Positions 21,481-54,822 of a DNA stretch of 64,000 nt are shown here, in pieces. This stretch comes from Tubulanus polymorphus (Eukaryota; Animalia; Nemertea). Made by a program: the position numbers and the translations under genes. A model generated the notes under the pieces. That model saw only the letters and a program-made list of their open reading frames with translations, did not search any database and was not told the origin of the DNA. Location of the stretch: assembly GCF_964204645.1 (NCBI RefSeq), contig NC_134031.1:13689807-13753806 (forward strand), read 5' to 3'. The first letter of the stretch is position 1. Every line of letters starts with the position of its first letter.

Positions 21481-21571
21481 GAACAGCAGATGGCGCGCGG
21501 GAGCCTTCACAGACCAGCTGACGAGATCCGGCTGTGACGTCACATCAACAACATCTGATGACGTCACATTA

Positions 21572-21612
21572 AGCCTGACGATGCCTACAGAATGTAGGTG
21601 AAAGCTTGCTCT
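21572..21612 (+). ncRNA. Minimal hammerhead ribozyme in the pLTR (inverse copy at ~20114-20153, minus strand)
   Basis: CTGACGA-T-GCCTACA-GAA-TGTAGGT-GAAA-GCTT: conserved core, stem II and a palindromic stem III (AAGCTT). Confidence 0.7.
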
Positions 21613-23120: not shown

Positions 23121-25883
23121 CAAATCTTTCTCAAACCACACAGTCTAATGCAGAAATTCGTTATCGTTAAGAATAATCTATACTTGAAGCGGATTGGATT
23201 ATCAATAACGAAGTTACGAACTGTTGAAGTGACATACCTATTGACCGATCTGACGGAGAGTTGGCTCCCTTGTCTTTTTATATATAGTACCTAGGATACT
23301 GGGGTCAAAATTTTTTTTTGTCAGGTCCCTGTGGTGGGTTGGTGGAGCAGAGCAGGCCAAAGTTAGGTATGTTCATGTCCGCACGGGGCGCCACTATTGA
23401 TTGTGACGACCATTATTGATTAGGAAAAGTGTGATGCGCGTTTTTACTAGGCCTACTCGTTTTGACATCGCGTAGTAAAATCATTCATAAAACCTGTCTA
23501 TAAATGCAAATGAGCTAAAATCTATTGGAATCAACCAATAAGATCGATCTTTATCACTTGGGGGTTGGTTTAGTGTATAAATCCGCATTTTAGTCGAAGA
23601 AATCGAAATATACCCATTTTCAAGAGCAAAATTCGTCAGCTTAGGACCTGGAATAAGCGACGAATCATCAGGAATCAGGTTTAGGATCTTAAAATTCAAA
23701 TACTGAAGACCGCATGATTTTATTTCGTGTCGGGGCTGAGCGATCGCTGCCGGAAAAGTCGATGTCTAAGTTTTGCATTGAAGCGAGCGATACAAAATGG
23801 CCGCCGGCACTTGTTATTGAATGACAACGCGCCGCGCTGCTCGTGATGAGATCAATATTCAACAATTATTCATCGGTCTAGCGGTGAATTATTGTATTTA
23901 TTTTCCGATTCATAATTATTCATCACTATATTTCTGAATATTAGGACAGATTTAGCGAAATGATCGGCAAAAAAAATTTTTTGCGCGCGGATCGCCACTA
24001 AGCTCCCGTCAGTAAAGCGGCTGTTGAAAGAGGGAGGCGTCTAATGGGATGAATTGAGGCTTGTGACGGGCAAAAATAGAGGCGCGTGATGGGACAATGA
24101 GGCTCCCGAAGGGATTTTCCAAAAGCAGAAAATTGAAATATATATAAAATATTGTTGAAATTTAGCTCAAAACAAAACAAATGGATTATCATTTAGTTAT
24201 TATTAGTAGTATTATTACTATTGCTTGGTTTATGTTTCTAAACTGATTGATTTTATTATGATATCATGAATATATTTCAAATTTCAGCGTTTTGAGCTAG
24301 GCCAAGCCTAATTTTCTGCTTTTCTTAACTAAAATTCATTTAGCAAATAATATATAAAATTGGTATATTTAAATCAATTTGCAATAGGAGCCATGGAAAC
24401 CATAGGCATTTGGAATCAGATAAAAATTTTGGGTCTGTCAACTGTCACCTGAAAGTGCTATGAGTGTGTTGCTCTTTAAATTTCTAGTCTATCTCTTTTA
24501 GTTTAAGAGATTTTGAAGTTTGTTTACATGAAATATTGCCTTCTTAGATCACAGTTTTTTTCTATTTATTAGACTATTGAAACATGAAGGCACTTTTCGC
24601 TCAAATTTTCAAACTTCAATTTGCGATATCTATAAAACTACTGAAGATAATTCAAAAATTTAAAAAGCATATTGTTATTTGAGCCCTCCCTATTCCAACA
24701 AGCCTTTTCAGTAAGATTGGAGCTATTTGAATTTTTTATGGATATAGCTACCAAAGTTACCTCTAGTTAGTTACCTAATCGTTGGTGGTAAGCTTTTTAT
24801 AATCGGATGGGCTTATACCAACGTTAGGGATGACAAGGACCAAAACACGGTTGAAAAAAGTAACACTTCAAAAGTATACTTTCTATTCACTTCAGTCCAC
24901 AATTAATGGCTTAATTCACAAACTAACACAGGTACCTTTCGAAATAATCCAATTTTATGTATGTTTCGAGTGGTTAATCAACATTATTTTGAGAAATTAA
25001 TTAATTTCTCCACCAATTTCGCCATTGGCCGCCATTTCTCTGTATTGCACATGTGGCATGATAAGACAAGGGGACCTACAAGGATTTATATAAAACTTCC
25101 GAGACGAAACGACAATTTTTATTTTTGATGGTTTTCCAACTTATATTTCAAATCTTCGTGTTTTCCATAATAAATAATGAAATAATAAATTCTGGTAAAA
25201 GAAAAATGTGAATAAGTGTTGATTTCTTAATTTTTTTCAATTTCGTCGTTTCGCTTCGTTAGATTGTGCTGTTGTCCTCGCCTCAGTCCACAGGTGCCAG
25301 CACCTCCAGTAATTTTCAAAATGGCAGCTGTTGACCCGACGGAAATTTACTCTCACTTTACGGCCGATTTGCACATGAATTAAGATCGTCAGGTGAGGTG
25401 TTATAGGTATCAGACAAACTACGAATCTGTTGTGCGTCGATTACAACAAAAAATAGACGGATATCTTAAGAGACAATGAAATGCCAGGCAAATTACTCGT
25501 CAGTCAAATTGGCTGACGAAGATTTCATACAAAAATGACCTTCCCATTCCTGACTGTGGTTTGTGAAAATATCCGATTGTGAAACTAAACCACAGACAGG
25601 TTACTGACTAAGTTACTCCAGCTCCAATTCACATACCTTTGTCAGCTGATTCACAACTAGGAGATGAACCCATATAGGCTTAGGCCTTTCGCAATTTCTT
25701 CTTATTCGCACAACCTCTATTCGTTCACCTCGTCAGAAAAAAATCAAATTAAAGAACTCCATTTTATGCCCATTTTATGACAGGAAATGTCAGATCCGGG
25801 GAATTCCTGGTTTCCAGTGACGTCATTTTCACGGCCTTCGCAACGGACACGACTTGAATTAATACAAGTCAATATAGTTTATT

Positions 25884-26213
25884 CACAGGGTTTGGCGATG
25901 GGCTTGGATTTTATTTCCGGGTTGTTGATAATCTCGCGAGAATGGCGCTAAATATGAACTGCGAATAAATTCAAAATATCACGGAAATACCTTGTGTTTA
26001 TATTGTTTATTTATCCGCTATAAAGTTTCGATAAACAATTGGTCGGTAAGAATCATTATCAGACGGTCGTCACGCTTTACTATATAAAATCACTTTGACC
26101 GTCTGATAATGATTCTTAACGACCAATTGTTTATCGAAACTTTATAGCGGATATTCTCGCGAGATTATCAACAACCCGGAAATAAAATCCAAGCCCATCG
26201 CCAAACCCCTGTG
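25884..26213. mobile_element. Palindromic MITE, 330 bp, 8-bp TSD AGTTTATT (P- or hAT-type); partial second copy at 42698-42898
   Basis: TIR CACAGGG(G)TTTGGCGATGGGCTTGG..., a second internal inverted repeat, and an exact 8-bp duplication at 25876 and 26214. Confidence 0.88.
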
Positions 26214-26382
26214 AGTTTATTCTGTCGGTGTTTCCGGCGACGTCGGGGTAGCATTCGAGGAACCGCATCAAACAAGGAACCGCTAGAGGGTGTCATTTTC
26301 AACCTTCACGGCACCTAGAGCGGCGCTGGCATCAGACCACAATTAGGTTAATGTCTATTCATTAATGGATGAGACCTGTTTT

Positions 26383-29291
26383 GGCACAGTAACCGACTGG
26401 CTCTCCGGGCCAGATTTTCTCACAACGGCTGCGCCAGACAATATACCGCCGCTCAGTACTGGTCTACAGCTTGGCCTCCCTAACGCACGGGCCGGGCCAA
26501 ATAACTTCGTCGGGGATCCCCTCTACACGTCGTGCCTCCTATCGATTCTAGGTGGGTCTTCGGGTCCAATCGTCCTTAACTTGAAGGCGATCATCAACAA
26601 CTCGGAATCCTTTCGTTTCCATGGTAGCGCGTCCTCATTCCAAGGTTGTTCCCGAAACAGGTCGAACTGACTCAGACTCAGATATCCACTCAAAATAAGA
26701 CATAAGACCGTTATTCGTGAAAAATTAACGATTGCCATGTTTATTCAGCTCAACAACGGATTAAAAGAACAGGGTGTTGCTCGTCACTCAAGATCAAAGC
26801 AATCTCCCAATACTCGTAATAAAATATGTGTACTCTCGGAAATCCCCAGGAACAAGGGACGTTTATAACATTTATAAACTGGTCCTTAGGCATAACGACG
26901 GCTCGTAGAACTAATCATGTTCCACGGATATAATATTGTACGAAGGCGCGATTAGGCTCACACCCAAAAATGAGAGAGAGAGAGAGAAAAAGGGGGGGTT
27001 TGAACTATGAGAGTCAAATAATTAAAAGGCTTGAGTCCGAAGCGGAAATGTCGGTGACGATGAGCAGATCCCAATATCTGAACCCGGCCAAGGACCGACT
27101 CGATAATGCCTCCTCTTGAACTACCACTACAGGGATTCTTCATCTTGGTTGGAATTCGCCTTCACTGGTGGTCCGACGCAGGGACTGATCAGTTCCCTGG
27201 TCCGCCCTTCTTTCTTCGGGACACTCATCTCTGGTCCTCTTAGGCAGTAAGACATCAAGGGGAGACTTGGTTTCGACCTGGACTACCACTGGCAGCATGG
27301 TTGATCGTCACCCGACAAATTCCGAAACTCAAGGGGGGTCAAGTGACCCAACGAAATAAAATACCGTCAAAAATGATATTCCCTCACCCTTCTCTCTCAA
27401 CTCAGTTTTAAGAAAAATACTAAGGACCGCACGCGAAATCGCCCGCGGAAATAAATGCAACGAGGCCTAGGCGACCCCGAATAAAATTCGACTCTACAAC
27501 GATGCATTGCATAAATGGTTGAAACGCGAGGCGGATATAGCCGAAACGGTTAGGTCCCGCCGGCGCATTACTAAAGTCAAACGGCTTAGCTGCCCGATTA
27601 TCATCTAACTCGAATTAGAACTCAAGCGTGAGGTATTTCGAGCGACTGGGAGACAGAGAGGAATAGTCCTCGCTGTGCCCCAGTCCCAGCATCACAATGA
27701 TGTGGAAACTCGTTAGAATAATACCTAATGTCCGTATTTTAATACTAGAGGGATCGATCGTCGATCGATAATACTTCTCGTGGAATAGGACGGGTAATGC
27801 CCCATGATTAAGGCGATTAATGCTTAAGGAGGGGAGGGAAGAAATCGGCGACAGTGCCAGCACCCGACTGGAACTCAGTCTCTGCAGATTCTCGTCTAAC
27901 GGCTGACCGGCAGACCCCATTCTTCGTTCTCTTCGCTTTTCCGTGGACCAATATACCATTCCCGTAGGTGGTCAAACCATCGACATCAGACGTCCTCTCC
28001 GGACCCGGCAAATCCCGTAGGCGGCTGAACCATCCGCACCAATAACCCTCGTCGTCTTCAATAGCCTAGCTATCTGGACCGTCAACGGACTGAGACCAAA
28101 ATAACCTACCCAAACCAGTCACCATCGCCAAAATCCACCCACCCGGGACGGGAATTACCTTAGGTAGAGCTTTAAACAAGGGCTGTCGTTGGAGACAACC
28201 TAATACTATCGCAGTGATGATTGGCGAATACTACAGAAGTTTAGAATAACATGGCGGGCCGGGGACAATCAGGACCTCGCGGCACGGAAACAATAACAAA
28301 TACCAATAATAAAAGCAACGTAATTCAATCACATCCCCCCGAGGAAAGGAAACCCGGTCCCCGTCGGGACGCGGGAGGTAGGCCTACAACTTGCTTACAT
28401 TGTAACTTGGAATATAGTATTCGTTGGTTAGAGAGAGCTAAATTGAACCATGCGAGTGGTCGACGCTCAGGTCAGAATCCCAAACTAACGCGCTGCCCGC
28501 CTTATATAGGGCTCGTTGTCCCCGCGTTGTCCTGATTGGCTACCCGCCTTTGTCCCCGCTACGCTCCAATAGGTTGAAAATCACGTGGTACGGCGTGACG
28601 TCACGATCACGCGTGACTGACCGCCGTCCACGACGTCGCTCGATCGGAACCTACAAGCATAGATTTATTTATACGAACTCCGGTCCGAGTCGAGCATTAA
28701 AAACTCCGAAAAGAAAAAGATTTATTATCAAGAGAATATTTAACTTCCAATTAGTTACAAAAAAATGTAGTTCACCGAAAGAGGGAGCACTCAAGCGGTC
28801 GGCACCGCGGAGTACCAAATTGAACCGGCCCGAATCCGGGCGCTACTCGACTTCACTAGAGCGGAATTCATATATCACAATATAACATCGTTAGGATATA
28901 AATACGAACGTATTGGTAAGAAGATTTAAGACGTACTGATGTGCTTTAAGAGCAGTTTGATTTCTTGAACAACTGGTTCCGCCGAATAGTTATAAAGACG
29001 GTAAGACAACATAGTCTGAGTAAAATCCCCCAACGAACACAACTCGACTGGACGCGAGCTGAGTTCGTCCCGCAACGCAGTAAGAAAGGTAACCAGGTTA
29101 TAAACGGGAATAAAGGATAAGGAAATTGAATAATTGGTGCTATTTTAAGGATCTATAAATATTAGACGCTATCTGTGGCGATACATGAGGGATTCAAAAC
29201 TGGCGCTCTGGCCCGGTTATAAAACTGCTATGCAGGCAAGAAAGTGATTTAAATTTGGCGCCTATAACATCATCACGGAATTTCCGCTACA
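26383..29291 (-). repeat. 3' LTR (starts TGTAGCGG at 29291; last ~17 bp missing)
   Basis: Follows the polypurine tract. 26383-29131 matches 36159-38906, with three substitutions and microsatellite-length differences seen by eye. Confidence 0.9.
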
Positions 29292-29307
29292 CCACCCCCT
29301 CCCAGCC
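29292..29307 (-). other. Polypurine tract
   Basis: GGCTGGGAGGGGGTGG immediately before TGTAGCGG. Confidence 0.8.
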
Positions 29308-29409: not shown

Positions 29410-31084
29410 CTAAGCGTAAGACGTTTCAATCTCGCACGCCACGCAGTCGACGGGCATGTCGTCGAATCCATAGATGATCATATCTCCCAGCGGCAACGGG
29501 TGCACATGCACCTCACCGAAAGGCGCCGAAGAACTACGCGCGGGCGGATCCCAATCGATCTCGGCTGCGACCGCCATCTTTCTACAGAACGGGCACGCGA
29601 AGTGCGCCGAAGGAATTGCTCGGTAGATGGCGGGTCTACCGTGGCACGTCGGGTGCTCGTGCACCACCACTCGCTGCGAGATTCCGGGTGCAGCCTTAAA
29701 TTGTTGCTGCTCCTTTACCGGTCGAGGAGCGTCCTCCGCGGTCACGGGCGGAACGATCGGCCCGGGCTGGGACTCCTGAGTGATATTAATGCGAGTCGGT
29801 TCATACGTGGGGGTCGCGTTGCCCCACCAGTTCTGGAACCCGGTACCAAGTTGTTCCGGCGAATATGGTTCCGGAAGTGTCCTGTTCCGCTCTTCCCGTT
29901 CTCTCTTCCGTTTCTCCTGCAGCCTGGACCTCTCCAACTCCCTCTTGCTCCTCTCTCGCTCGCTTATCTCTCTCCTCCGTCGCTCCTCCTCCACGCGCTG
30001 CTTCCTCGCGGCTTCTTTCGTCGCTGTAGCTTCGGCTGCCCGGCGTTCCCGGCTAGCGTGTGCAAGTCGCACAACGCGTCTTTTAAACTCGCGCGCATGG
30101 TCATGTGACGACTGTTCCACGATGGAACTATGGGCCGCATCCAGGACAGACGGGTCCAGTTTGGATAGAGTCGACGACGGGGAATTAACGGTGTGCGGCT
30201 TCGACGAAGAATTAACGATCTGCGGCTCCGACGAAGAATTAACGGTGTGCGGCTTCGACGAAGAATTAACGATCTGCGGCTCCGACGAAGAATTAACGGT
30301 GTGCGGCTTCGACGAAGAATTAACGATCTGCGGCTCCGACGAAGAATTAACGGTGAGCGGCTTCGACGAAGAATTAACGATCTGCGGCTCCGACGAAGAA
30401 TTAACGGTGTGCGGCTTCGACGAAGAATTAACGATCTGCGGCTCCGACGAAGAATTAACGGTGTGCGGCTTCGACGAAGAATTAACGATCTGCGGCTCCG
30501 ACGAAGAATTAACGGTGTGCGGCTTCGACGAAGAATTAACGATCTGTGGCTCCGACGAAGAATTAACGATCTGCGGCTCCGACGAAGAATTAACGGTGCG
30601 CGGCTTCGACGAAGAATTAACGATCTGCGGCTTCGACGAAGAATTAACGATCTGCGGCTCCGACGAAGAATTAACGGTGTGCGGCTTCGACGAAGAATTA
30701 ACGATCTGCGGCTCCGACGAAGAATTAACGGTGTGCGGCTTCGACGAAGAATTAACGATCTGCGGCTCCGACGAAGAATTAACGATTTGCGGCTCCGACG
30801 AAGAATTATCTCTCGCGCGTTTCGTTGGTGGTTCGCCCTCACCCAGGGAGACACGGGGAGGCTGGTCCCAGAGTTCCTCTATGACTTTTAAGACCTTAGT
30901 CGGGGTTCGGTGATCCCGGCGCGCATGTCTCCGGATGGAATCGGCCCGAGAGCCCGTCTTCCCGCATGCGGTGCATCGATAGGAGACTCCAACGCGTGCG
31001 ATCGAGTCACACGTCTCCTGGTGTCGCTGCAAAGTTGCCGAGTCACGGAAGTGATAATGGCATCCGTGGCACTTCTCTCGCGTC
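29410..31084 (-). CDS. Gypsy ORF3 (~558 aa if spliced): two C2H2/C2HC zinc fingers, 23 x 9-aa Ser-rich repeat, charged coiled coil, Cys/His-rich C-terminus
   Basis: CHGC-x12-HQETC and CTAC-x12-HARRDH. No in-frame ATG near the start (the track start is GTG). Strong acceptor ttcttttcttttctttAG ending at 31085. Confidence 0.8.
30182..30808. repeat. 27-bp coding minisatellite, 23 units, two alternating variants (VNSSSEPQI / VNSSSKPHT)
   Basis: Directly visible; units counted from the translation. Confidence 0.97.
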
Positions 31085-31163
31085 CTAAAGAAAAGAAAAG
31101 AACAGCCGGGTCCCACATAAGTAAAGCGTTGAGTTAGGGTAGGAGTCGGCGAACCGCCTAGGC

Positions 31164-34100
31164 CTAAAGGTACAGAAAGGACTCATCCCGTCGTTGAGTA
31201 GGAACCCGCGAGCTCCTCCGTTGGGAAGTAGGAGTGTCAGTTACAGTCAGCTCGGTTGCGTCGTGATTTAAACCCAGGTATTGGGTTCCCAGATAAGGCT
31301 TTAGTCGGTCGTAATGTACTATTTTGGGGGCGTTGGTCGGCATATCTTGTATTTCGTAGACTGTTTCAGAGCGCTTCTGTAAGACGGTGTATGGTCCTGT
31401 CCAATTCAACTGAAACTTCCGGTTGGGATTTCCGCTCGTGATTTTCGGTTGGTACAGCCACACAAGGTCCCGGGCCTCATATGGTTTCCCATAACGTCGT
31501 TGGTCATGGAGATTCTTCTGACGAAGAGTATTCTTTGCTAACGCTTTCCGGGCATCGCGGTGGGCTGTCTCCATCCGTTTCCGAAGCTGGCTGACGTACT
31601 CAGTGGTCGACGGGAACTTGTCTTTAGGCGGAAGGCCAACTATGAGGTCTACGGGGAGATCTACCTCCCGCAGCAACATCAGATAGTTCGGAGAGGCTTC
31701 AGTCGTATTATGTCTAGCCGCACGATAAGCCATCGCAGCGAACGGCAACTGTAAATCCCAGTCGAAGGGGTCATCGGCAGACATCAGGGACAGCATCGAT
31801 ATCAGACTGCGGTTAAAACGCTCGACCATACCGTCACTCTGGGGCCTGTATGGAGTAGTGCGGGTTTGTTTTATACCGAGGAGGATGCAGACTTCTTTGA
31901 ATAATTTGGATTGAAAATTCGAACCCTGATCAGTATGGAGCTCACGAGGTACGCCAAAACGGCTGAAAAACTCTGTCACTAGTTTGTTGGCTACCGTCTC
32001 GGCCTCCATATTGGGAATAGCGTAACATTCAACCCATTTGGTAAAATAGTCCATAGCAACGACGACATAGACGTTGCCGGCCGTGGTCTCCTGGAGGGGG
32101 CCCATAATATCTACGGCGATACGCTCCATGGGTGCTCCTACGTTGTAAATCTGAAGTTCAGCCTGAAATTTCTTTGCCGGGGGTTTCTTCCGAGGACAGA
32201 GCTCACATTGCTTCACCCATAACTCAATATCTTCTCTCATCCCGGGCCAGTAATACCTCTGTTGTAACTTGGAAAGAGTTTTCTCGATCCCTAGGTGTCC
32301 CCCGGTACGAGCCGAATGGAGTTGGTGGAAAATAGTACGGCGGAAATTCGGCGGAACAATCAGTTGGGAAAATCCATCCTCAGATCTACACTCCCGGAAT
32401 AGAATCTCGTTGTTGAACGATAGAAGCTCCCACTGAGCCCAATATCGTTTGGCGTTGGTACTCTTATCTGAGACGTCTCGCCACGGTGGCTTGGAGATGC
32501 CGGCTATCAACCCGTCGATCGCCCACTCTAAATCTTCGTCGGTTCTCTGAGCTGACTTGAGCTCCTCTAAGTCCCACGGTTCATCTAATTGAGATTCGAC
32601 GACTCCGTCTTCGATCACGTGTATATACCCTATCTTATCACACTGCTTACACGGCATCCTCGATAACCCGTCAGCGTTACCGTGTTTTACTCCGGGACGG
32701 TGCTCAATCCGAAACTGATAAGTCGACAAGGCTTCCAGCCAACGGGCAATTTGACCTTCGGGTTCCTTCAGATTCATCAGCCAACGGAGGGCGCTGTGAT
32801 CAGTGCGGATGAGAAAATCTTGTCCGTAGAGATAGTGCTTAAAATGCTTCACGAAGAACACGACCGCCAATAATTCACGCCGAGTCACGCAGTAGTTCTG
32901 TTCCGCGCGGTTGAGCGTGCGACTTCCAAATGCGATCGGGAGTTCCTCGTTTCCTTGCACCTGACTCAACACGCCTCCGATGGCGAAGGCACTAGCGTCG
33001 CAATCCAATATATACGGGTCCGTGACATTCGGGTATGCTAGGATGGGTGCGTTGGTCAACTTCTCTTTCAGCTCCCGGAAAGCTTGCTCCTGCTCGTCCC
33101 CCCAGATAAAATCTTGGTCTTTAGTCGTGAGTCTGTGGAGGCTGCCCGCGATCTTCGCGAAACCGGCGACGAATCTCCTGTAATAAGTGGCAAGGCCCAA
33201 GAAACTACGAACTTCCTTGACATTTCTGGGCGTTGGCCAATCCCGTATACACTGGATCTTGGACGGGTCTGTCTGTATGCCCTCGTGACTAACCACGTGC
33301 CCGAGAAAAACTACCGACCGCTGGAAAAGCGAGCACTTGCGGGGTTTAAGTTTGAGTCCGGCTTCTTCCAATTTACTGAAGATGAGGTCCAACCGTTCGA
33401 CCATCTCTTTAACGGAGCTACTAAACACCAACACGTCGTCGAGGTATATTAAACAAATCTCCCACTGGAGCCCAGTTAAGACCATTTCCATCAATCTTTC
33501 GAAGGTTCCCGGAGCTCCGGACATACCGAAAGGAAGAACAGTGAACTCCCACAATCCACTCTGCGTAATGAAGGCGGACTTCTGTTTCGCGTCCTCGCTC
33601 AACGTAACTTGCCAATAACCGGAATTCAGATCTAGGGTGCTAAACCAGACGGCGCCTCCCAGACATTCCAGCGAACGATTGATATTCGGGATAGCCATGC
33701 TTTCTATGGTCGTTACTTCGTTTAGTCGGCGATAGTCCACGCAGAAACGTGTGCTTCCGTCTTTCTTGGTCACCAATACAATCGGGGACGACCAGGGGGA
33801 CCGGGACCTCTCTATCAACCCGCGGCGATGCATGTCTTCGATCAAATTCTCTGTTTCCTTGCGTTTGGTCAGGGGAGGAAGTCTCGGCGCCTGTCGTATG
33901 GGTGGGTGATTCCCGGTGTCCACCTCATGGGTGACCAAATCTGTCCTTCCCAGGTCTTCATCGGTTTCCGAAAAAGCTGAAGCATGTTTAATCAGTAGCT
34001 CCGCCACCAAGGGAGCGTCTTCCTGGCTGAGGTTCTTTACGCTGGCTTGATACAGTTCTTCCAGGTGTTCTGGAATGTCGTGGTTCGCACTAGGTTCTTC

Positions 34101-34913
34101 GGATTCTGAGTTCTTTTCTTCCATCTCAACGGTTCGAATCGTGGAAACGGTAATGAGTCTTCCCAGGACTGTAGACTGCGGAAGAAGGATAGGGCTGTAT
34201 CCCAAATTCATCACTCGAACACAAGTGGAACTCCGCTCTCGAGTGTCGACCAGTGTTCGGGCCACAGCCAGATCTCCGCCCTCGTATCGTCCTGTACCCT
34301 CGATGATACCAAACGATGGAATATCGGAATCCCCAGAGATAGAAGTGGGTATGACCATCTGGTGTCGAGCTGGTATTTCTATCGCTTCCAGGGTCCTCGC
34401 TAATAATTCGGTTTCGGGTTCTAATGAATTCTTCGTGTGGCAGACGATCTCTTCGTTACCGCAAAATAGCAACGAATTACCCACATCCAGGTACGAGCCG
34501 GTTCGTTTCAGAAAGTCCATCCCCAAAATCCCGTCGCCAGCGATATCCGCGACGATGACGTCAATCCTTAACGGTTTTTGACCTAACGGGAAGGTCAAAG
34601 TGGTTACCCCACCAACAGTTATTTTGCTGTTACTTGGTCCGAAAAGTTTCAAGTCGGATGGTTTGAGCCGTGGTCGGTGTGACTTGGGTATAGCTTCGTA
34701 TGCGGCTCTTGAGAGTATAGTTCGGCAGGCGCCAGTATCTACCAAGAGGGCCATCTGAACTTGTCCTATCTCGGTAATTATGTAAAGTCCATTATCGGCG
34801 ATTTTATCGGGGTGGCAATTAGCAATCCGGACGATGTTTGTTGGAGGGGGCTGCTCGATTTGATCTACTGTCTCCGGCCCACGCCCCCTGGCACCGGAGA
34901 GGAAGCATTTCCC
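31164..34913 (-). CDS. pol: Gypsy Pol polyprotein (protease, RT, RNase H, integrase with GPY/F), expressed by -1 frameshift
   Basis: LVDTGA, YLDD, DAS...TDH, HHCC, D-D-E and WTGPY motifs. The frame stays open upstream of the track ATG (34754) as far as the slippery site. Confidence 0.95.
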   Translation of the reverse strand, partial: GKCFLSGARGRGPETVDQIEQPPPTNIVRIANCHPDKIADNGLYIITEIGQVQMALLVDTGACRTILSRAAYEAIPKSHRPRLKPSDLKLFGPSNSKITVGGVTTLTFPLGQKPLRIDVIVADIAGDGILGMDFLKRTGSYLDVGNSLLFCGNEEIVCHTKNSLEPETELLARTLEAIEIPARHQMVIPTSISGDSDIPSFGIIEGTGRYEGGDLAVARTLVDTRERSSTCVRVMNLGYSPILLPQSTVLGRLITVSTIRTVEMEEKNSESEEPSANHDIPEHLEELYQASVKNLSQEDAPLVAELLIKHASAFSETDEDLGRTDLVTHEVDTGNHPPIRQAPRLPPLTKRKETENLIEDMHRRGLIERSRSPWSSPIVLVTKKDGSTRFCVDYRRLNEVTTIESMAIPNINRSLECLGGAVWFSTLDLNSGYWQVTLSEDAKQKSAFITQSGLWEFTVLPFGMSGAPGTFERLMEMVLTGLQWEICLIYLDDVLVFSSSVKEMVERLDLIFSKLEEAGLKLKPRKCSLFQRSVVFLGHVVSHEGIQTDPSKIQCIRDWPTPRNVKEVRSFLGLATYYRRFVAGFAKIAGSLHRLTTKDQDFIWGDEQEQAFRELKEKLTNAPILAYPNVTDPYILDCDASAFAIGGVLSQVQGNEELPIAFGSRTLNRAEQNYCVTRRELLAVVFFVKHFKHYLYGQDFLIRTDHSALRWLMNLKEPEGQIARWLEALSTYQFRIEHRPGVKHGNADGLSRMPCKQCDKIGYIHVIEDGVVESQLDEPWDLEELKSAQRTDEDLEWAIDGLIAGISKPPWRDVSDKSTNAKRYWAQWELLSFNNEILFRECRSEDGFSQLIVPPNFRRTIFHQLHSARTGGHLGIEKTLSKLQQRYYWPGMREDIELWVKQCELCPRKKPPAKKFQAELQIYNVGAPMERIAVDIMGPLQETTAGNVYVVVAMDYFTKWVECYAIPNMEAETVANKLVTEFFSRFGVPRELHTDQGSNFQSKLFKEVCILLGIKQTRTTPYRPQSDGMVERFNRSLISMLSLMSADDPFDWDLQLPFAAMAYRAARHNTTEASPNYLMLLREVDLPVDLIVGLPPKDKFPSTTEYVSQLRKRMETAHRDARKALAKNTLRQKNLHDQRRYGKPYEARDLVWLYQPKITSGNPNRKFQLNWTGPYTVLQKRSETVYEIQDMPTNAPKIVHYDRLKPYLGTQYLGLNHDATELTVTDTPTSQRRSSRVPTQRRDESFLYL
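34845..34913 (-). promoter_or_regulatory. -1 ribosomal frameshift signal: G GGA AAT plus H-type pseudoknot
   Basis: The heptamer is in the gag frame (P-G-N). Stem 1 TCTCCGG/CCGGAGA; loop AGGGGGC pairs with downstream GCCCCCT; the -1 frame is pol. Confidence 0.8.
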
Positions 34914-35841
34914 GGGCGATTTTGATTGCAGTTGCGCGAAATGTGACCTGGTTGTCCGCAGCTGTAGCAGGTGATGCGGGACTGGTAATTGGTGGGCGCT
35001 GACTGCCTGGGTGGTGAAGTTTTGTCGGCCTTCGTGTCCAGTTTAGCTGCTAACGCGGTCATCTGTTCGGTTAGCTTCTCCAGCTGGTCTCTGACGTCTT
35101 TCATCGCCGAGTCTTGGTGCTGGGCGGCAATACTCCTGGCTGCAGCAGCCGCTTTCTTACCGGAGACGTGATTCGTATCCCGGCGGGCCTCTATTCGACG
35201 GAACGTTTCCACCTCCAGGGCGGCGGTGATTGCCTCCGACAAGGTCTTCGGGCTCGCTTGGAACAGACGCATACGCATCTCAGACTCTTGTAGGGCATCC
35301 ATAAAGTGGGATCTGGCGAGAGCGTCTTTAGTCTTTCTATCCGAGGCCGGATACGCGCGGGCTACTAGATTCTTTATGCTTTGACCTAACTCCTGTAAAC
35401 TCTCTCCCGGCCGTCGTACTCTGGCTCTCAGTTCCGCGGTATATAATTCCTCTCTGACCTGAGGACCAAATCTAAGTTGTAGTGCCGAAATTAAGCACCG
35501 ATAGTCTCTGCTTCGACGGAGTCAAAGTGGGCCTCAAACTCAGTCCAACTAGTCTTCCCGTCATACCGGTCCGGCGTGGTCGCTGGGCGACGTATACGGT
35601 AACGTTTCTGCCGCTCAGTCTGGGACAAGCGGAATTGAACGCGTCTGTCATCACCCTTCTCGTTCGGGTCACAGTCCTCGTCCTCCTCCTCGGCCGCAGT
35701 CTCCATCGGCTCCTCGTCATCAGAAGATCCAAAGTCAGGGGTTACTTGAGGCCCGTCTCCTCCACTCAAAAGGGTCGTAGTCTCATATTCTACCTCTCCG
35801 TCAGAGACGACGGTTTTGTCCGTATTATTACTATCAGTCAT
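34865..35841 (-). pseudogene. gag: Gypsy gag, frameshifted at ~35512
   Basis: N-part ...PDRYDGKTSWTEFEAHFDSV, then in another frame SRDYRCLISALQLRFGP... through CYSCGQPGHISRNC (CCHC knuckle). Confidence 0.85.
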
Positions 35842-36120
35842 CTTGCTGGCTAGAGGAAGGGGAAAGTCGTTAGGGTGGAATAGGAACGGGTATATAGTCA
35901 TGAGGGTTGCCTACGGGAACGAGCAAGAGAAATTTTAACAGGTTATCAAGAGCAACGAGCAACCATTCAACACGTGTAACATGACACAAAAGAAATATGA
36001 ATTAATGGTTCTTTAACTAAAAAAAGTGAGATATCTGAGTCCGACACAATTGAGGGGGCTGGTATCCCGGTCTCAACGCCGTTTCCATCTGCGTCAGTTC
36101 TTCTCTGTGTTTCTCGAAGT

Positions 36121-36138
36121 ATCCCACCGCTGCCACCA
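36121..36138 (-). other. Primer-binding site complementary to the tRNA-Leu 3' end
   Basis: TGGTGGCAGCGGTGGGAT, three bases after the LTR end ...CGGTTACA (36142). Confidence 0.88.
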
Positions 36139-36141
36139 CTT

Positions 36142-38906
36142 TGTAACCGAATAGGCCAGGCACAGTAACCGACTGGCTCTCCGGGCCAGATTTTCTCACA
36201 ACGGCTGCGCCAGACAATATACCGCCGCTCAGTACTGGTCTACAGCTTGGCCTCCCTAACGCACGGGCCGGGCCAAATAACTTCGTCGGGGATCCCCTCT
36301 ACACGTCGTGCCTCCTATCGATTCTAGGTGGGTCTTCGGGTCCAATCGTCCTTAACTTGAAGGCGATCATCAACAACTCGGAATCCTTTCGTTTCCATGG
36401 TAGCGCGTCCTCATTCCAAGGTTGTTCCCGAAACAGGTCGAACTGACTCAGACTCAGATATCCACTCAAAATAAGACATAAGACCGTTATTCGTGAAAAA
36501 TTAACGATTGCCATGTTTATTCAGCTCAACAACGGATTAAAAGAACAGGGTGTTGCTCGTCACTCAAGATCAAAGCAATCTCCCAATACTCGTAATAAAA
36601 TATGTGTACTCTCGGAAATCCCCAGGAACAAGGGACGTTTATAACATTTATAAACTGGTCCTTAGGCATAACGACGGCTCGTAGAACTAATCATGTTCCA
36701 CGGATATAATATTGTACGAAGGCGCGATTAGGCTCACACCCAAAAATGAGAGAGAGAGAGAAAAAGGGGGGGGTTTGAACTATGAGAGTCAAATAATTAA
36801 AAGGCTTGAGTCCGAAGCGGAAATGTCGGTGACGATGAGCAGATCCCAATATCTGAACCCGGCCAAGGACCGACTCGATAATGCCTCCTCTTGAACTACC
36901 ACTACAGGGATTCTTCATCTTGGTTGGAATTCGCCTTCACTGGTGGTCCGACGCAGGGACTGATCAGTTCCCTGGTCCGCCCTTCTTTCTTCGGGACACT
37001 CATCTCTGGTCCTCTTAGGCAGTAAGACATCAAGGGGAGACTTGGTTTCGACCTGGACTACCACTGGCAGCATGGTTGATCGTCACCCGACAAATTCCGA
37101 AACTCAAGGGGGGTCAAGTGACCCAACGAAATATAATACCGTCAAAAATGATATTCCCTCACCCTTCTCTCTCAACTCAGTTTTAAGAAAAATACTAAGG
37201 ACCGCACGCGAAATCGCCCGCGGAAATAAATGCAACGAGGCCTAGGCGACCCCGAATAAAATTCGACTCTACAACGATGCATTGCATAAATGGTTGAAAC
37301 GCGAGGCGGATATAGCCGAAACGGTTAGGTCCCGCCGGCGCATTACTAAAGTCAAACGGCTTAGCTGCCCGATTATCATCTAACTCGAATTAGAACTCAA
37401 GCGTGAGGTATTTCGAGCGACTGGGAGACAGAGAGGAATAGTCCTCGCTGTGCCCCAGTCCCAGCATCACAATGATGTGGAAACTCGTTAGAATAATACC
37501 TAATGTCCGTATTTTAATACTAGAGGGATCGATCGTCGATCGATAATACTTCTCGTGGAATAGGACGGGTAATGCCCCATGATTAAGGCGATTAATGCTT
37601 AAGGAGGGGAGGGAAGAAATCGGCGACAGTGCCAGCACCCGACTGGAACTCAGTCTCTGCAGATTCTCGTCTAACGGCTGACCGGCAGACCCCATTCTTC
37701 GTTCTCTTCGCTTTTCCGTGGACCAATATACCATTCCCGTAGGTGGTCAAACCATCGACATCAGACGTCCTCTCCGGACCTGGCAAATCCCGTAGGCGGC
37801 TGAACCATCCGCACCAATAACCCTCGTCGTCTTCAATAGCCTAGCTATCTGGACCGTCAACGGACTGAGACCAAAATAACCTACCCAAACCAGTCACCAT
37901 CGCCAAAATCCACCCACCCGGGACGGGAATTACCTTAGGTAGAGCTTTAAACAAGGGCTGTCGTTGGAGACAACCTAATACTATCGCAGTGATGATTGGC
38001 GAATACTACAGAAGTTTAGAATAACATGGCGGGCCGGGGACAATCAGGACCTCGCGGCACGGAAACAATAACAAATACCAATAATAAAAGCAACGTAATT
38101 CAATCACATCCCCCCGAGGAAAGGAAACCCGGTCCCCGTCGGGACGCGGGAGGTAGGCCTACAACTTGCTTACATTGTAACTTGGAATATAGTATTCGTT
38201 GGTTAGAGAGAGCTAAATTGAACCATGCGAGTGGTCGACGCTCAGGTCAGAATCCCAAACTAACGCGCTGCCCGCCTTATATAGGGCTCGTTGTCCCCGC
38301 GTTGTCCTGATTGGCTACCCGCCTTTGTCCCCGCTACGCTCCAATAGGTTGAAAATCACGTGGTACGGCGTGACGTCACGATCACGCGTGACTGACCGCC
38401 GTCCACGACGTCGCTCGATCGGAACCTACAAGCATAGATTTATTTATACGAACTCCGGTCCGAGTCGAGCATTAAAAACTCCGAAAAGAAAAAGATTTAT
38501 TATCAAGAGAATATTTAACTTCCAATTAGTTACAAAAAAATGTAGTTCACCGAAAGAGGGAGCACTCAAGCGGTCGGCACCGCGGAGTACCAAATTGAAC
38601 CGACCCGAATCCGGGCGCTACTCGACTTCACTAGAGCGGAATTCATATATCACAATATAACATCGTTAGGATATAAATACGAACGTATTGGTAAGAAGAT
38701 TTAAGACGTACTGATGTGCTTTAAGAGCAGTTTGATTTCTTGAACAACTGGTTCCGCCGAATAGTTATAAAGACGGTAAGACAACATAGTCTGAGTAAAA
38801 TCCCCCAACGAACACAACTCGACTGGACGCGAGCTGAGTTCGTCCCGCAACGCAGTAAGAAAGGTAACCAGGTTATAAACGGGAATAAAGGATAAGGAAA
38901 TTGAAT
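36142..38906 (-). repeat. 5' LTR (ends ...GGTTACA at 36142; first ~160 bp missing)
   Basis: Direct repeat of the 3' LTR; similarity stops abruptly at 38906. Confidence 0.9.
38250..38400 (-). promoter_or_regulatory. LTR RNA polymerase II promoter (copy at ~28475-28625)
   Basis: TATATAAG (~38283), CCAAT boxes, GGCGGG, E-box CACGTG and CRE TGACGTCA (38371) clustered in the sense orientation. Confidence 0.65.
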
Positions 38907-41169: not shown

Positions 41170-42144
41170 TTATCCACCGCATGAAAGTTTTTGCAGCGTC
41201 TTTACGAATTTCCTGTTAACTGCACAATAAAGAATGAAATTCACACATGAATTTAAATCACTCGTTACGAAGGCAATATCCATTGCTTTCTCCCATATTA
41301 CAGCATTGGGACTAATATACGATCTAAGCTTGGAAAATGTTGCTGGGATTTCCATAATCAGAAAGGTAATGCTCATCGATATCACCATACGTGTTGCCTT
41401 AGATTCACCGATATTCACTTGTTTTTGTGTGGTCGATAATTCTTTCCGTTGTCTGAACTTGATATAAAGGGTCAGAATAAGACATGTATTTACAATAAGA
41501 ATTAGCAAAGAAGGCACAACCAGTCTGATGATAGGATCCAACAGTTTGTTCAGTGTAATATATTCCTTGGGATATCTTCTTACAAGTCGATTGTTCAAAC
41601 CATGACAAAGGTCCATGTAATTATCTACCCTTAAAGTTATAGGATAATATATAGGCCAAATGAATGTATACAAGGAAAATGAGATGATTATATGGTTCAT
41701 ACGGGATTTAGTCCAAAACCTACCCGCTTTTAATGGAATCGAAACGGCAATGAACCGTTCCAACTGTATCAAAACTGTTAACCAGTTTCGAAGGCACATA
41801 AATCCATTGCGAATTTGAACCGTGCCATAGATGTACATTTTGGGATAAATGTGGAAAGGGTCGATGAATACAAAATCGCCATAAAAAACATAAAACAACG
41901 TATATCTTAAGGTTTCCGCGAGGAAATGACCGAATAGATAACCAACATCTGCAAAAGCCAAACATTTTAACAGATGAATCGACGGGTGAGTAGATTTCAG
42001 CTGCATTAAGGTGGCGATTACGAGACAGTTCATCGCCCAACCCGCTGCCATAATCGGTGGCAGGACGAAGACATTGATATAGAACCGAAGAGACCATTCG
42101 TCATATTGTTGCGTACACGCTTCATTGCGGCTTATATTTTTCAT
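41170..42144 (-). CDS. Intronless class A (rhodopsin-like) GPCR, FMRFamide-receptor-like orphan group, 324 aa
   Basis: Seven hydrophobic helices. GxxxN (TM1), LAFAD (TM2), ERF (DRY-like), FLIMEIP (TM6), NSCVNFILY (TM7). N-terminal sequon NIS. TATAAAG at ~42319 on the minus strand. Confidence 0.92.
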   Translation of the reverse strand: MKNISRNEACTQQYDEWSLRFYINVFVLPPIMAAGWAMNCLVIATLMQLKSTHPSIHLLKCLAFADVGYLFGHFLAETLRYTLFYVFYGDFVFIDPFHIYPKMYIYGTVQIRNGFMCLRNWLTVLIQLERFIAVSIPLKAGRFWTKSRMNHIIISFSLYTFIWPIYYPITLRVDNYMDLCHGLNNRLVRRYPKEYITLNKLLDPIIRLVVPSLLILIVNTCLILTLYIKFRQRKELSTTQKQVNIGESKATRMVISMSITFLIMEIPATFSKLRSYISPNAVIWEKAMDIAFVTSDLNSCVNFILYCAVNRKFVKTLQKLSCGG

Positions 42145-42927
42145 TTGCTAAATCTGCCCAATCGTCACCGATTTGACGTTACTGGAAACGTCAATGTGGC
42201 TTCTAAATATCAAAACTCTTCTACAAGAGGTTGACGCCATACATGATCAGTTTGTAATGTTATGGGAGAAAAATTTCATATCGGCCTCCTTCGATTGTAA
42301 TTATAAGAACGCCTTTATAGCATGAGTTTATGCACTATGAATAATGTAAACTGGAAGACGTCCAAAGGCGATCAACCAAGGGCCGGTTAATCAAAAGTTG
42401 GTTAACTCCTAACGTGTCGTTGAATCCTTGATCGTGACGTTATTAATTAATGACACGATAAGTTCGGTTGCTCAAAAGTTATTGTGTCAATAGATATCCA
42501 TAACAAGTCGTTAAATTTAAACAACCTCCTGTAGCCACGTTAAGTGCTTAACGTGGCCGTTAACTTCAATAGAAAATAGCGCGACAACTTTTTTGGGTGA
42601 ATTGACAATTTAGTTTTGAATCGTAGACAGCGGCTACCTATACTCAAGCTTGAGCTGGCAAATGAGGAACTGCGAAAGAATATTGATTCGGCAGACACAC
42701 AGGGGTTTGGCGATGGGCTTGGATATTATTTCCGGGTTGTTGATAATCTCGCGAGAATGGCGCTAAATATGAACTGCGAATAAATTCAAAATATCATGGA
42801 AATACCTTATGTTTATATTGTTTATTTATCCGCTATAAAGTTCCGATAAACGATTGGTCGTTAAGGATCATCATCAGACGGTCGCAATGCTTTACTATTC
42901 TTAGACTGGTTACCGGTCTCCATCTTC

Positions 42928-43265: not shown

Positions 43266-45154
43266 CTATCTTCAATTAGAGACCGGTTGTGCCCATCCTC
43301 CATTTTACATTTTCGATGCATGTCAAATAAGGTCAAACATGTAAAGTAGCAAGTTACTTCCTGGTTAAGATGGCGTCTCTTCGAATTTGCTTAGCTTCGA
43401 GCGATATCAAAATTGCCCTTTTCAATGGACGGAGACATTAATTGCTGTAAGTATCAGATAAATCCGCTGATAATTTACCTGGTACTCGGAATACAAACTC
43501 GATGATTGAAATCTAATGCGAGGTGAGTTCTGCCGCGACCGTCACTGAATACAGAACATTCTGAAGGAACATGGGACATCCTTTCTGAGATGTATTTAGT
43601 GAATTGATGTTTTAATACATTTGACCATATTTAGTATCTGATAATAAAGTTTACAATTGTTGAACTCCTTAGCGCTTTGTGAGATCAGATATTTGGATCC
43701 ACCTCAGCCTACTGATTTCCTGACAGCAAGTTGGGACAGTCAAATTAAGAGACTTGGTCAAGACAAGTTACTCAGATCACACTGAAAATTCGCGATATCC
43801 TCTCTCCTCATGGACCACACAATGTCAATGTTGACTTTGCTAGAAATCGATTATAAAATTCATCACGACCAATTCTTTTTCACTGAATTCAATATTTATT
43901 GTTCACTTCTGGTACAAAATCTTGTTCAGCCCCTGACAAGAGAATAAGCAATTGACAAGTGAATAAGCAATGACACTACGTATTTCATGACATAGAACAG
44001 TAGTTTTGTTTTTTCATCGTCAAATTGGGACGATCCTGATATCCCTGATTTGAATGATAGTGTCTTTAGAATCATAAAGACCATGTCTCGACCAGACAGA
44101 TAATCCAATCACAATTCAGATTGAAGGCTTGCTAGTGCAGTTATTCACAGAATCCAGCTCTTTAAACCTCATCAGTTTATCTGATCATGAGCAGTGGAGA
44201 AATAAAGTACACAACATCTTGGCGCAGCGGCGCTTGCTGATGTTACTGATGCTGATGATGAGTTGATCAGAATCAAGGAGTTTCACCGCATGTTAGTTGG
44301 AATCTCATTTCATGACAGCTAGTGCTGATTCTTTATTCTCTTTGATTACTGCAAGATGTTATCATTGTGAAATTAAAATACATATCGCACTTACAATTAA
44401 ACCTGGATTGACTTTACAATTAATGGTTCAGAATCCATTTTTCAAACTTACCTTGATTCATTGCAATCTATTCGTTTCGTGTTGAGCTAATTTGATATGC
44501 ATTACTTCAATTTCTTAAAACATCCTACGAGTTGTGACTCACAAAATCATCACTAAAACGCTCACAATAATCTACAATAGATAATCAATATAGTGTTTGT
44601 GAAATAGAATATTCAATGTTCACATTTTTACGAAGTCAGTAAGTAGGTGAAGTTACCTTGTTGATGTCATTATTTTCACTGGATCAACTGCTGATGTCCA
44701 ATGTCACATTAAGAACAATCAATCAATCGCCTCGAGTGAACAAACAAGTAGCCTCTGCTGCAAGGTTCAGTATGTCAGTAGTGGTATAGTAGTATTGTGT
44801 GTATTGTTGTTTCCATCCTCCAGTCCAAAATTGCTGATTGACGACCGGTAGGTTTCGACGGCGCTGTCACGCAGCCGTCCTGAATTTAATACCGATATTT
44901 TCGGTACCACACGCTAAACAAGTGCCTGCAGAAGCGTTACCTGGCAGTTTTAACGGAATTTCTTTCTTCATTGGTATAAAAAATGACTTTTAAAGAGGTC
45001 CATGGAACGTAAATCGAAACACAGTGTAGGCGGCCATGTTACATTGTTCACGTGATGAAATACTGAAATCTGAATGGATCCGTAAAATCCGCGGAAGATG
45101 GCGGACGGGCAAAACCTGTCCCATATTGAATGGGACAGGCAACCAGTCTATACT

Positions 45155-51899: not shown

Positions 51900-52146
51900 A
51901 GAATAATATATCTCAAATAAAATATAATAAAAATTACATACCTTCAACTATCTATTATTTCTATTTTAATTTTTAATATTTTCTTTTCAAAAAAGAATAC
52001 TTTATATTTTGAATAGATCCGAATAGAAATTCTTTAAATTCAAATAGCTAGTATCAGTAGTCAATACTAGAATTCTTTAACTTTAACTAGCTAGTATCAT
52101 TTTATAATACTTATAATACTATTCTTATTAAATTTCTCTAATATAA

Positions 52147-53101: not shown

Positions 53102-53104
53102 AAT

Positions 53105-54800: not shown

Positions 54801-54822
54801 CTATTTGTATACCTATGTATTA

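Follow-up and report, generated by a model that had tools for sequence, protein, structure and literature searches.

A minus-strand Ty3/Gypsy LTR retrotransposon from the nemertean Tubulanus polymorphus carries in the env position, after pol, a third open reading frame (ORF3) that, judged by its deduced product, is not Env and is very likely a real gene for a zinc-finger protein. This assessment is based on the fold of the fingers, on related ORFs elsewhere and on an excess of synonymous change in sister copies, and we consider it highly probable that ORF3 functions as a gene. ORF3 is probably spliced from a donor in the LTR and, with rather less assurance, we infer from the geometry of the sites that the 38174/31084 junction supplies its AUG. 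The role that we favor for the product, regulation of the element's own LTR, is tentative.

A Young Gypsy Element with a Non-Env ORF3

Coordinates (Table 1) refer to the window, i.e., the whole stretch of 64,000 nt that was analyzed (contig NC_134031.1, positions 13,689,807–13,753,806). The element is young, with 2.9-kb LTRs that are 99.8% identical over a 2,749-nt match, and its pol shows the order protease, RT, RNase H and integrase. The inner ends of the LTRs, the primer-binding site (PBS) and the polypurine tract (PPT) were all found, and the outer end of each LTR, where a target-site duplication would be sought, is gone; sister copies in runs X2 and X3 depart from the element sequence at 36142, the inner edge of the 5′ LTR. 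The 18-mer of the PBS, which we take to be tRNA-Leu-like, is identical in the related loci L008 and L086. The second gag piece contains a zf-CCHC match (E 2e-7), the unspliced leader is 2,353 nt long and holds 31 ATGs, and the predicted gag-side acceptors occupy ranks 2, 4, and 5 in pyrimidine richness among the 250 YAG sites of the element.

Table 1. Features of the Tubulanus Gypsy element, in window coordinates.
Feature	Position	Strand	Remarks
5′ LTR	36142..38906	-	Match to 3′ LTR; outer ~160 nt absent; full length would be 2,926 nt
Promoter	38277..38378	-	CRE 38378, CCAAT 38345 and 38314, GC box 38323, TATA 38283; motif scan, putative function
Predicted exon 1	38174..38255	-	Ends in AT; start site placed from the TATA box
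Predicted donor GTAAGC	38168..38173	-	Unspliced RNA reads the same bases as start-stop (ATG TAA)
Primer-binding site	36121..36138	-	Presumably tRNA-Leu-like; inside predicted intron
Predicted gag-side acceptors	35846..35911	-	35911 and 35850/35846, directly 5′ of gag-frame ATGs
gag	34865..35910	-	Two ORFs; frame change near 35,500 breaks the gene; CCHC knuckle in second piece
pol	31164..35042	-	Open: protease, RT, RNase H, integrase; frame differs from ORF3
Branch-like CTAAC, pyrimidine tract and acceptor AG	31085..31137	-	Intron end 31085
ORF3 exon 2	29410..31084	-	557 codons and a stop codon; first Met at residue 503
Finger pair	30910..31071	-	C2HC then C2H2, 11-residue linker
Motif W-D-x-x-P-x-x-x-L-G-E-G	30832..30870	-	Common to L009; partly in P0092 and P0109
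27-bp tandem repeat	30175..30808	-	23.5 copies; 9-aa Ser-rich spacer
Arg/Lys/Glu-rich predicted helix	29878..30099	-	Composition; NLS-like KRKR
Cys/His-rich C-terminal region	29434..29661	-	Credible relatives not found in searches
Polypurine tract	29292..29303	-	Sequence scan
3′ LTR	26383..29291	-	Begins TGTAG; final 17 nt absent; second donor copy at 28398

ORF3 is open from stop to stop between 31182 and 29410, and the codons that follow the predicted acceptor include Met only at residues 503, 535, and 543. The first-pass annotation had described a gene in the env slot lacking an early ATG, a signal peptide or a TM segment, and containing a repeat spacer and a Cys/His-rich C-terminus. All these points were borne out: the first Met is at residue 503, the lack of a signal peptide or TM segment is based on hydropathy (the best 19-residue Kyte-Doolittle window reaches 0.89, with no hydrophobic segment), none of the Env families in Pfam was matched at E 1, and both the repeat and the Cys/His region were located in ORF3. 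The basic coiled coil that it had also described held as to its charged composition (29 R/K and 16 D/E in 74 aa), the term coiled coil being a reading of that composition. Two further readings of the repeat were dropped, one as a mucin-like or Env product (26 N-x-S/T sites), since a signal or TM segment is absent, and another as an RS-rich product in the neighboring frame, since there are stops between that frame and the fingers.

The tandem repeat is open in four of the six frames, so its openness is no evidence for coding by ORF3; in the unique C-terminal half the minus-strand frames contain 0, 4, and 12 stops, and only that of ORF3 is open. Among the ORF3 differences listed in sister copies (in one comparison, 37 of about 112 were covered), 19 of 46 are synonymous vs. 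27% expected (p = 0.025) and none creates a stop; for the C-terminal half alone, p is 0.051 for the synonymous excess. A net deletion of 17 nt, near 29800–29818, is carried by one sister contig that appears in each of the three runs, and an X1 contig has a 1-nt deletion at 30902.

Predicted Splice Sites and a Putative Split Start Codon

The branch-like CTAAC at 31137–31133 is followed, with no AG in between, by the acceptor AG ending at 31085, the richest in pyrimidines (17 of 20 positions, 13 of them T) among all YAG sites of the element; the spacing of ~50 nt between both exceeds the usual norm. At the other end, the donor at 38173 is the first GTRAG past the TATA box, ~110 nt downstream, and ranks 4 among 400 GT sites using a rough weight matrix, in which it scores 3.7 vs. 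5.2 and 3.0 for two other donors near the promoter. As the donor lies inside the LTR, there is a second copy at 28398. The predicted intron would span 7,089 nt, and exon 2 would open with a G that is the third position of an ORF3 codon, giving an in-frame AT|G join with A at −3. The first-pass annotation had proposed these sites and this join; the coordinates check on the minus strand and the geometry is as it had been described. GTRAG is present in 42 of 263 130-nt LTR windows and, with ~1 in 16 for the preceding AT, the chance of an AT|G donor is ~1%, the acceptor left uncounted.

A split start codon is a device already known from Drosophila gypsy, whose env, as the first-pass annotation had stated, gets its AUG by splicing: the AUG of env is split across a splice junction in gypsy and in the springer subclade (PMC2585583; PMC12992720). 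There, the product is the env glycoprotein, whereas Tubulanus ORF3 has zinc fingers and lacks a signal peptide, a fusion peptide and a TM segment; likewise, the gypsy donor is described as lying in the gag region, whereas that of Tubulanus is predicted inside the LTR.

Donors were also sought in related Gypsy loci. A TATA-like site followed by GTRAG occurs in L008, L017, L091, L093, and L106, with LTR limits that are clear for L091 only; the candidate from L106 was dropped because it precedes the PPT of that element. No donor was found within 400 nt of a TATA-like site in L068, L010, L041, L015, L086, L108, and L119, and L020, L080, L099, and L104 showed no TATA-like site; among nine short LTRs from elements lacking ORF3, a TATA-like site was present in three, each time with no GTRAG. 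The exons of the remaining candidates would end in TG (L008), GT (L017), AG (L091), and CT (L093); with AT in none of these four, the split start looks specific to the lineage of the Tubulanus element. Most relatives carry their own ATG after the acceptor, and this is so wherever a donor could be checked. Splicing from the LTR donor fits the anatomy of the element and that of L091: in the PPT-defined LTR of this relative a consensus donor follows the TATA box at a distance of 76 nt, and the ATG of its ORF3 comes 8 nt after an acceptor.

Alternatively, the acceptor could be used and the AT|G join be incidental, with ORF3 starting at a near-cognate ACG or from another upstream exon, or having lost its start and entered decay. 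We give this possibility a minor share of the probability. It agrees with L068 and L051, where AG|G is followed by an ATG belonging to the gene itself, at the place of ACG in the Tubulanus element, and with the other endings of the relatives' donors, the competing donors near the promoter and the frame-breaking indels of the sister contigs. Conversely, it would leave as a ~1% coincidence that the first GTRAG past the TATA box yields an in-frame AT|G, and sits poorly with an intact 557-codon ORF showing a synonymous excess and with an X1 contig spanning 30940–31536, where the acceptor and the first codons are unchanged among the differences listed (4 of 5). Runs X1–X3 resemble DNA, as U3 and internal parts are equally covered, and have no bearing on expression; the 38174/31084 joint is absent from them.

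Zinc Fingers and Possible Mode of Action of ORF3

The two fingers had initially been taken as C2H2, which applies to finger 2, whereas finger 1 is C2HC (ligands C5, C8, H21, and C25). Pfam zf-C2H2 matched the finger region with E 4.6e-6. Of the two ends of ORF3 for which the first-pass annotation suggested structure models, the first 60 residues gave a beta-beta-alpha structure for each finger (pLDDT 76–92) and the C-terminal Cys/His region an unusable model (pLDDT 43). A fold search with the finger model had as best matches DNA-binding C2H2 proteins (CTCF, BCL11A, and Zif268-type fingers; best E 0.019), with none at E 0.001. By their ligands and modeled fold, the fingers are of the classical C2H2 type, finger 1 being a C2HC variant, with an 11-residue linker vs. 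the canonical five. Their helices show D-1/R+6 and R-1/D+2/R+6, presumably classic base-contacting residues, and these positions vary widely between relatives. The site predicted by the finger code occurs 10 times in U3, compared to a shuffle mean of 4.6 (18 of 1000 shuffles equal or exceed it), in one post hoc test with a site that overlaps host GC boxes.

Our best explanation, which we put forward tentatively, is that ORF3 is a spliced gene whose product binds DNA and regulates the LTR of the very element that encodes it. The LTR donor would be spliced to the acceptor after pol, producing a subgenomic ORF3 mRNA in which AT and G meet to form the start codon, and the two-finger product would bind DNA and regulate the LTR promoter; the same donor might also be used with the acceptors preceding gag, resulting in three RNAs, i.e., unspliced genome, gag-pol mRNA and ORF3 mRNA. 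With similar reservation, the protein may be nuclear and act via DNA binding as an activator or as an anti-silencing factor. Against this explanation, the 7-codon upstream ORF that exon 1 would carry (starting at 38226) would lower initiation, and the Tubulanus copy has a broken gag and lacks the outer end of each LTR.

The same spliced gene could instead produce a protein acting on RNA, like CERV from Cer1 or HIV Rev, that binds the genomic RNA while this still contains the intron, and either permits the export of that RNA or restrains its splicing; we deem this unlikely, about on a par with the incidental join discussed above. The PBS falls within the predicted intron, which makes unspliced RNA the one form that can be copied, and the leader rich in ATGs, the strong gag-side acceptors and the Arg-rich helix also agree with a role in RNA export. 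A precedent exists in CERV, from the Caenorhabditis elegans Ty3/Gypsy element Cer1, a 517-aa nuclear protein with a Cys-rich finger, translated from a spliced mRNA and needed for export of genomic RNA (PMC10309623). CERV and ORF3 are alike in being non-Env 3′ ORFs of ~500 aa with nuclear signals and a Cys-rich finger, splicing being predicted for ORF3. However, ORF3 has helices of the DNA-contact type and folds matching DNA-binding C2H2 proteins, together with one predicted intron, a predicted exon 1 in non-coding LTR and no gag part, whereas CERV is described as having five exons, with exons shared with gag, ring-forming domains and what may be a C4 finger.

Finger ORFs in Related Gypsy Elements

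A finger ORF in sense orientation within 2.2 kb after integrase was found in 15 of 73 related Gypsy loci, and in antisense in two (Fisher p = 0.001), although the 73 loci are not independent of one another; among the 15, L119 is probably spurious and L104, L106, and L108 carry the fingers mid-ORF, whereas L008 and L080, with finger ORFs recognized by eye, fail the counting rule and are outside the 15. In eight of these 15 loci, vs. 3.6 expected (p = 0.007), an upstream Met has an acceptor-like YAG no more than 12 nt away. Of the features whose conservation the first-pass annotation had proposed to survey, finger ORF3s and acceptors do recur in relatives, and a donor preceded by AT was seen in none of the four that could be checked. 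The finger ORF3s from L009, P0092, P0109, L099, L091, L068, L020, L017, L086, and L093 occupy the same slot, with N-terminal C2HC and/or C2H2 fingers and often an acceptor just upstream, as in Tubulanus; the C2HC-C2H2-WD layout is recurrent, the post-finger motif being shared with L009, P0092, and P0109. They differ in having mostly their own ATG, in being in frame with integrase in three cases and in their diverse C-termini, and none of these ten possesses the repeat, the helix or the Cys/His tail of Tubulanus ORF3.

Homology searches with full ORF3 yielded no match among 7,989 candidates. The C-terminal 116 aa retrieved one match in 1.84 billion, which was dismissed, being a repeat protein of bacterial type and low complexity, and Atlas searches produced none above 0.80 for the C-terminal region and generic C2H2 clusters only for P0140; a two-sequence profile found, among 494 candidates, only the protein from L009 itself. 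Against a profile built from L009, P0092, and P0109, the N-terminal 95 aa of ORF3 scored 17.3 bits, which none of 500 shuffles keeping the eight ligands reached; with default correction this profile did not find full-length ORF3 at E 5, and the WD motif alone had an E of 0.29. Viral contigs contributed 0 and 4 loci, and these lacked a finger ORF3.

In P0092 and P0109 the two fingers continue the integrase tail in one frame, the tail motif plus both fingers being present in 7/15 and 8/15 of the listed members of their respective clusters, and the finger tail of L009 is also in frame with integrase. This would be in agreement with a finger module that serves as a tether for integration or to chromatin and that descends from an integrase extension comparable to the chromovirus chromodomain, being now a separate protein, an option that we judge improbable. 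In chromoviruses the C-terminus of integrase continues in frame into the targeting domain, whereas pol of the Tubulanus element stops at 31164, in another frame than ORF3; additionally, the fused relatives show an acceptor at the fusion point, and also a Met in two of the three groups, which suggests separate expression. Of the seven members listed for the P0092 cluster, five lack any Met from the acceptor-like peptide to the fingers.

In a quick integrase tree, finger ORFs are patchy and do not form one clade (112 of 500 shuffles were as low), with the Tubulanus element in an unresolved 75-row group; named errantiviruses were not among the rows. The complex Gypsy lineage postulated by the first-pass annotation has a precedent in CERV. 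That ORF3 is a passenger host zinc-finger fragment, or a chance frame lengthened by the repeat, with no role in the element, is very improbable: the repeat open in several frames, the many related elements without any ORF3, the unclustered finger ORFs and the lack of full-length homologs among the candidates searched would suit it, and it is opposed by the enrichment of finger ORFs at the same position and in the same orientation in many elements, by the recurrent finger layout and by unique parts open in the ORF3 frame only.

The usual view of animal Gypsy elements is that they consist of gag-pol, with or without env, CERV being one nematode case of a regulator in the third slot. Our literature search, mostly without subscription papers and Repbase, found no description of C2H2-finger third ORFs in them. 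LTR elements from bdelloid rotifers contain in the env slot non-Env ORF3s that are family-specific and swappable, typically expressed from spliced messages, and that encode GDSL esterases, DEDDy exonucleases, and coiled-coil or TM proteins; unlike for Tubulanus ORF3, zinc fingers are not mentioned in the text of that description (PMC5408684).

Provided that finger ORF3s are functional, numerous elements of invertebrates would encode sequence-specific regulators of their own, as complex retroviruses do, and those with a split start codon would be overlooked by gene finders. More speculatively, and we think this unlikely as a whole, there could be a widespread, undescribed complex group of animal Gypsy elements whose env slot is a spliced regulatory cassette, with an LTR-reading finger module plus swappable effector tails, in Tubulanus the charged helix and the Cys/His domain, and which alternates between fusion to integrase, an ATG of its own and an ATG created by splicing, the gypsy-type split start having evolved independently in the Tubulanus element. 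In such a case, synthesis of the Tubulanus regulator would be strictly splicing-dependent, and the split AUG would tie it to a step that hosts can repress, making a clean switch; the pairing of fingers with their own LTR could be compared family by family. The candidate effector tails in other elements are a BTB domain in L093 and a TatD nuclease in four others.

Structure and age of the element

The element lies on the minus strand, is a member of the Ty3/Gypsy LTR retrotransposons and, judged by its third gene, is not an errantivirus. Its two LTRs are 99.8% identical across 2,749 nt, indicating a young insertion. A full-length LTR would measure 2,926 nt; with ca. 160 nt missing from the start of the 5′ copy and 17 nt from the end of the 3′ copy, no target-site duplication is readable. 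The internal region opens with a primer-binding site behind the 5′ LTR and closes with a polypurine tract (PPT) ahead of the 3′ LTR; pol is open (protease, RT, RNase H, and integrase) and gag is split over two frames. Relatives of pol, with named examples from Cordylochernes, Branchiostoma, Pinctada, Diaphorina, and Stegodyphus, reach at most about 50% identity over the full region. Palindromic MITE-like repeats flank the element, which lacks the outer end of each LTR. Sister copies lacking 650 nt of gag, possibly a non-autonomous subfamily, are present in all three DNA-like sequencing runs (X1–X3).

A predicted split start codon for ORF3

ORF3, the third gene, spans 557 codons from the acceptor at 31085 to position 29410 and has its first Met only at residue 503, in agreement with the first-pass annotation, which had proposed that splicing from the LTR creates its start codon. 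This acceptor is the top of the 250 YAG sites in the element for pyrimidine richness, and a branch-like CTAAC lies ca. 50 nt 5′ of it with no intervening AG. The TATA box at 38283 is preceded by a CRE, a GC box and two CCAAT boxes, and the first GTRAG past it is the donor GTAAGC at 38173; on a rough weight matrix, this donor ranks fourth among 400 GT sites and scores 3.7, vs. 5.2 and 3.0 for two other donors within 400 nt. In the predicted join, exon 1 would contribute AT and exon 2 the G of an in-frame ATG, with an intron of 7,089 nt. GTRAG is present in 42 of 263 LTR windows of 130 nt, so that AT at the donor is a coincidence of about 1%. We could confirm the geometry of the split start, the junction itself being a prediction from sequence. 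This predicted mode of expression resembles that of Drosophila gypsy env, for which a spliced AUG is indeed in print (PMC2585583), as it is for the springer subclade (PMC12992720).

Two features had been overlooked: the predicted exon 1 holds a 7-codon upstream ORF, and strong acceptors (ranks 2, 4, and 5 among YAG sites) occur 5′ of gag, behind an unspliced leader of 2,353 nt that contains 31 ATGs. The presence of these acceptors suggests that a single LTR donor may serve gag-pol as well as ORF3. Among these acceptors (window 35846-35911), 35911 joined to the 38173 donor would give a 4-codon ORF with a stop overlapping a gag-frame ATG, and 35850 and 35846 would create no start.

The ORF3 product and its putative role

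ORF3 has a Pfam match to zf-C2H2 (E 4.6e-6); of the two C2H2-type fingers originally described, finger 2 is C2H2, whereas finger 1 is C2HC. Both model as beta-beta-alpha (seven-row model, mean pLDDT 76.5), and all fold matches listed for the model are C2H2 proteins, the best at E 0.019 and none below E 0.001. The fingers are followed by a W-D-x-x-P motif, a KRAR signal, a repeat (23.5 copies of a 27-bp unit), an R/K/E-rich stretch of 74 residues and a Cys/His tail, for which homology searches gave no credible relative and whose structure model did not fold. The best 19-residue hydropathy window, 0.89, is too low for a membrane segment and therefore ORF3 is not Env, as first proposed. Read in the neighboring frame, the repeat gives an Arg/Ser-rich ORF, separated from the fingers by stops.

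The finger helices carry D-1/R+6 and R-1/D+2/R+6, residues that contact bases in fingers of the Zif268 type. The corresponding site predicted by the finger code occurs 10 times in U3, vs. a shuffle mean of 4.6 (18 of 1000 shuffles as high), a weak enrichment that is post hoc and confounded by host GC boxes. We tentatively propose that ORF3 is a DNA-binding regulator: the LTR donor would join the post-pol acceptor, the junction AUG would start ORF3, and the finger product would bind DNA and regulate the element's own promoter. The first-pass interpretation is partly supported.

The main alternative, which we consider possible but unlikely, is a role like that of Rev or of CERV, the non-Env regulator encoded by C. 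elegans Cer1; the primer-binding site lies in the predicted intron and, therefore, unspliced RNA must be protected and exported. ORF3 is similar to CERV in concept; a spliced non-Env regulator has been described for Cer1 (PMC10309623), and diverse non-Env ORF3s for bdelloids (PMC5408684). In passages of PMC13524379, PMC3383448, PMC4131045, PMC8672886, PMC12440569, and PMC9341512, no Gypsy element with a finger ORF downstream of pol was found; likewise, a search of mostly open-access literature gave no paper on third ORFs with C2H2 fingers in Gypsy elements of animals.

Finger ORFs in related Gypsy elements

We collected 126 pol-related loci, and in 73 of them the integrase core is present and followed by 900 nt or more. 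Under a fixed rule, a sense finger ORF occurs within 2.2 kb after integrase in 15 of the 73, vs. 2 of 73 antisense (p 0.001). In eight of these 15, a Met ahead of the finger lies no more than 12 nt from an acceptor-like YAG (3.6 expected; p 0.007). Both p values are optimistic because the loci have hosts and ancestry in common; of the finger hits, the one in L119 is probably spurious. In a quick integrase tree made without L085–L126, finger ORFs showed no clustering (112 of 500 shuffles as low) and were scattered in a 75-row group.

Locus L009 and the related proteins P0092 and P0109 show the order C2HC, C2H2, WD-P-like motif. The first 95 residues of ORF3 outscored 500 of 500 ligand-preserving shuffles on a profile of these three, but whole ORF3 was absent at E 5 from the profile search with default scoring; homology is likely. 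In all three, as in cluster members of P0092 and P0109, the fingers share a frame with the integrase tail; in L009 an acceptor overlaps the coding sequence.

The split start was seen in no relative checked (none of four candidate LTR donors ends in AT). Locus L091 shares the layout of PPT, LTR, TATA, and consensus donor (+76), with an acceptor 8 nt 5′ of its ORF3's own ATG, and in L068 and L051 an ATG of their own comes immediately after AG|G, where the element has ACG. L093 has no Met ahead of its finger, and five of seven listed members of the P0092 cluster lack one from the acceptor-like peptide up to the fingers; these may be further start-less cases. That ORF3 starts elsewhere than at the junction, or has lost its start, appears improbable, and that it serves as an integration tether still more so.

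A TatD DNase domain ends a long post-pol ORF in four related elements (E 1e-32 to 1e-41), and a literature search on TatD for such elements found no paper with the term. Other third ORFs combine an N-terminal finger with a C-terminal BTB/POZ domain (L093) or, with two fingers, have CCAAT and TATA-like boxes directly 5′ of the ORF (L086), which suggests an internal promoter instead of splicing. L085–L126 are prokaryote genome records, many from animal symbionts, containing complete Gypsy elements of animal type, which most likely stem from contamination by host DNA.

Variation among sister copies

The differences analyzed were the best-supported 40 of 115 in one set and 40 of 214 in the other, and none listed creates a stop. 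Synonymous changes make up 15 of 37 in the C-terminal half of ORF3 vs. 27% expected (p 0.051), four of nine in the N-terminal part (p 0.025 when pooled) and 10 of 17 in pol. Against selection count a net 17-nt deletion near 29800-29818, in one contig but found in all three runs, and a 1-nt deletion at 30902 listed for one X1 contig. The X1 contig spanning the acceptor shows no change there among the four of five differences visible. That ORF3 is a mere passenger seems very unlikely.

Other features of the window

Coordinates of features in the window and in related loci
Feature	Location	Strand	Details
ORF3 exon 2	window 29410-31084	(-)	
Arg/Ser-rich ORF	window 29964-30878	(-)	304 codons
gag deletion in sister copies	window 35023-35674		
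MITE-like repeats	window 25888-26216, 42695-42898		
Rhodopsin-family GPCR	window 41170-42147	(-)	single exon; 7tm_1, Srw
Nested inverted repeat	window 19966-25511, 45130-46539		5.5 kb
AT-rich block	window 51099-62576		21-27% GC
Integrase with chromodomain	window 53102-54193		in AT-rich block
A32-type ATPase	window 54186-54800		in AT-rich block
Weak capsid match	window 55913-57160		E 0.012; in AT-rich block
Finger/integrase-tail frame	L009:1194-1997		
TatD-ended ORF	L104:9097-11439		
TatD-ended ORF	L106:2827-5985		
TatD-ended ORF	L108:10551-13166		
TatD-ended ORF	L119:9115-11262		
Finger-BTB/POZ ORF	L093:7326-9089		E 7e-13 (BTB/POZ)
CCAAT and TATA-like boxes	L086:2120-2180		

Within the nested inverted repeat are an RT ORF of LINE type (RVT_1, E 8e-37) and an ORF piece judged Penelope-like by eye, for which Pfam gave no match at E 0.05. 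The AT-rich block, which we infer to be Polinton/adintovirus-like, also holds several orphan ORFs.
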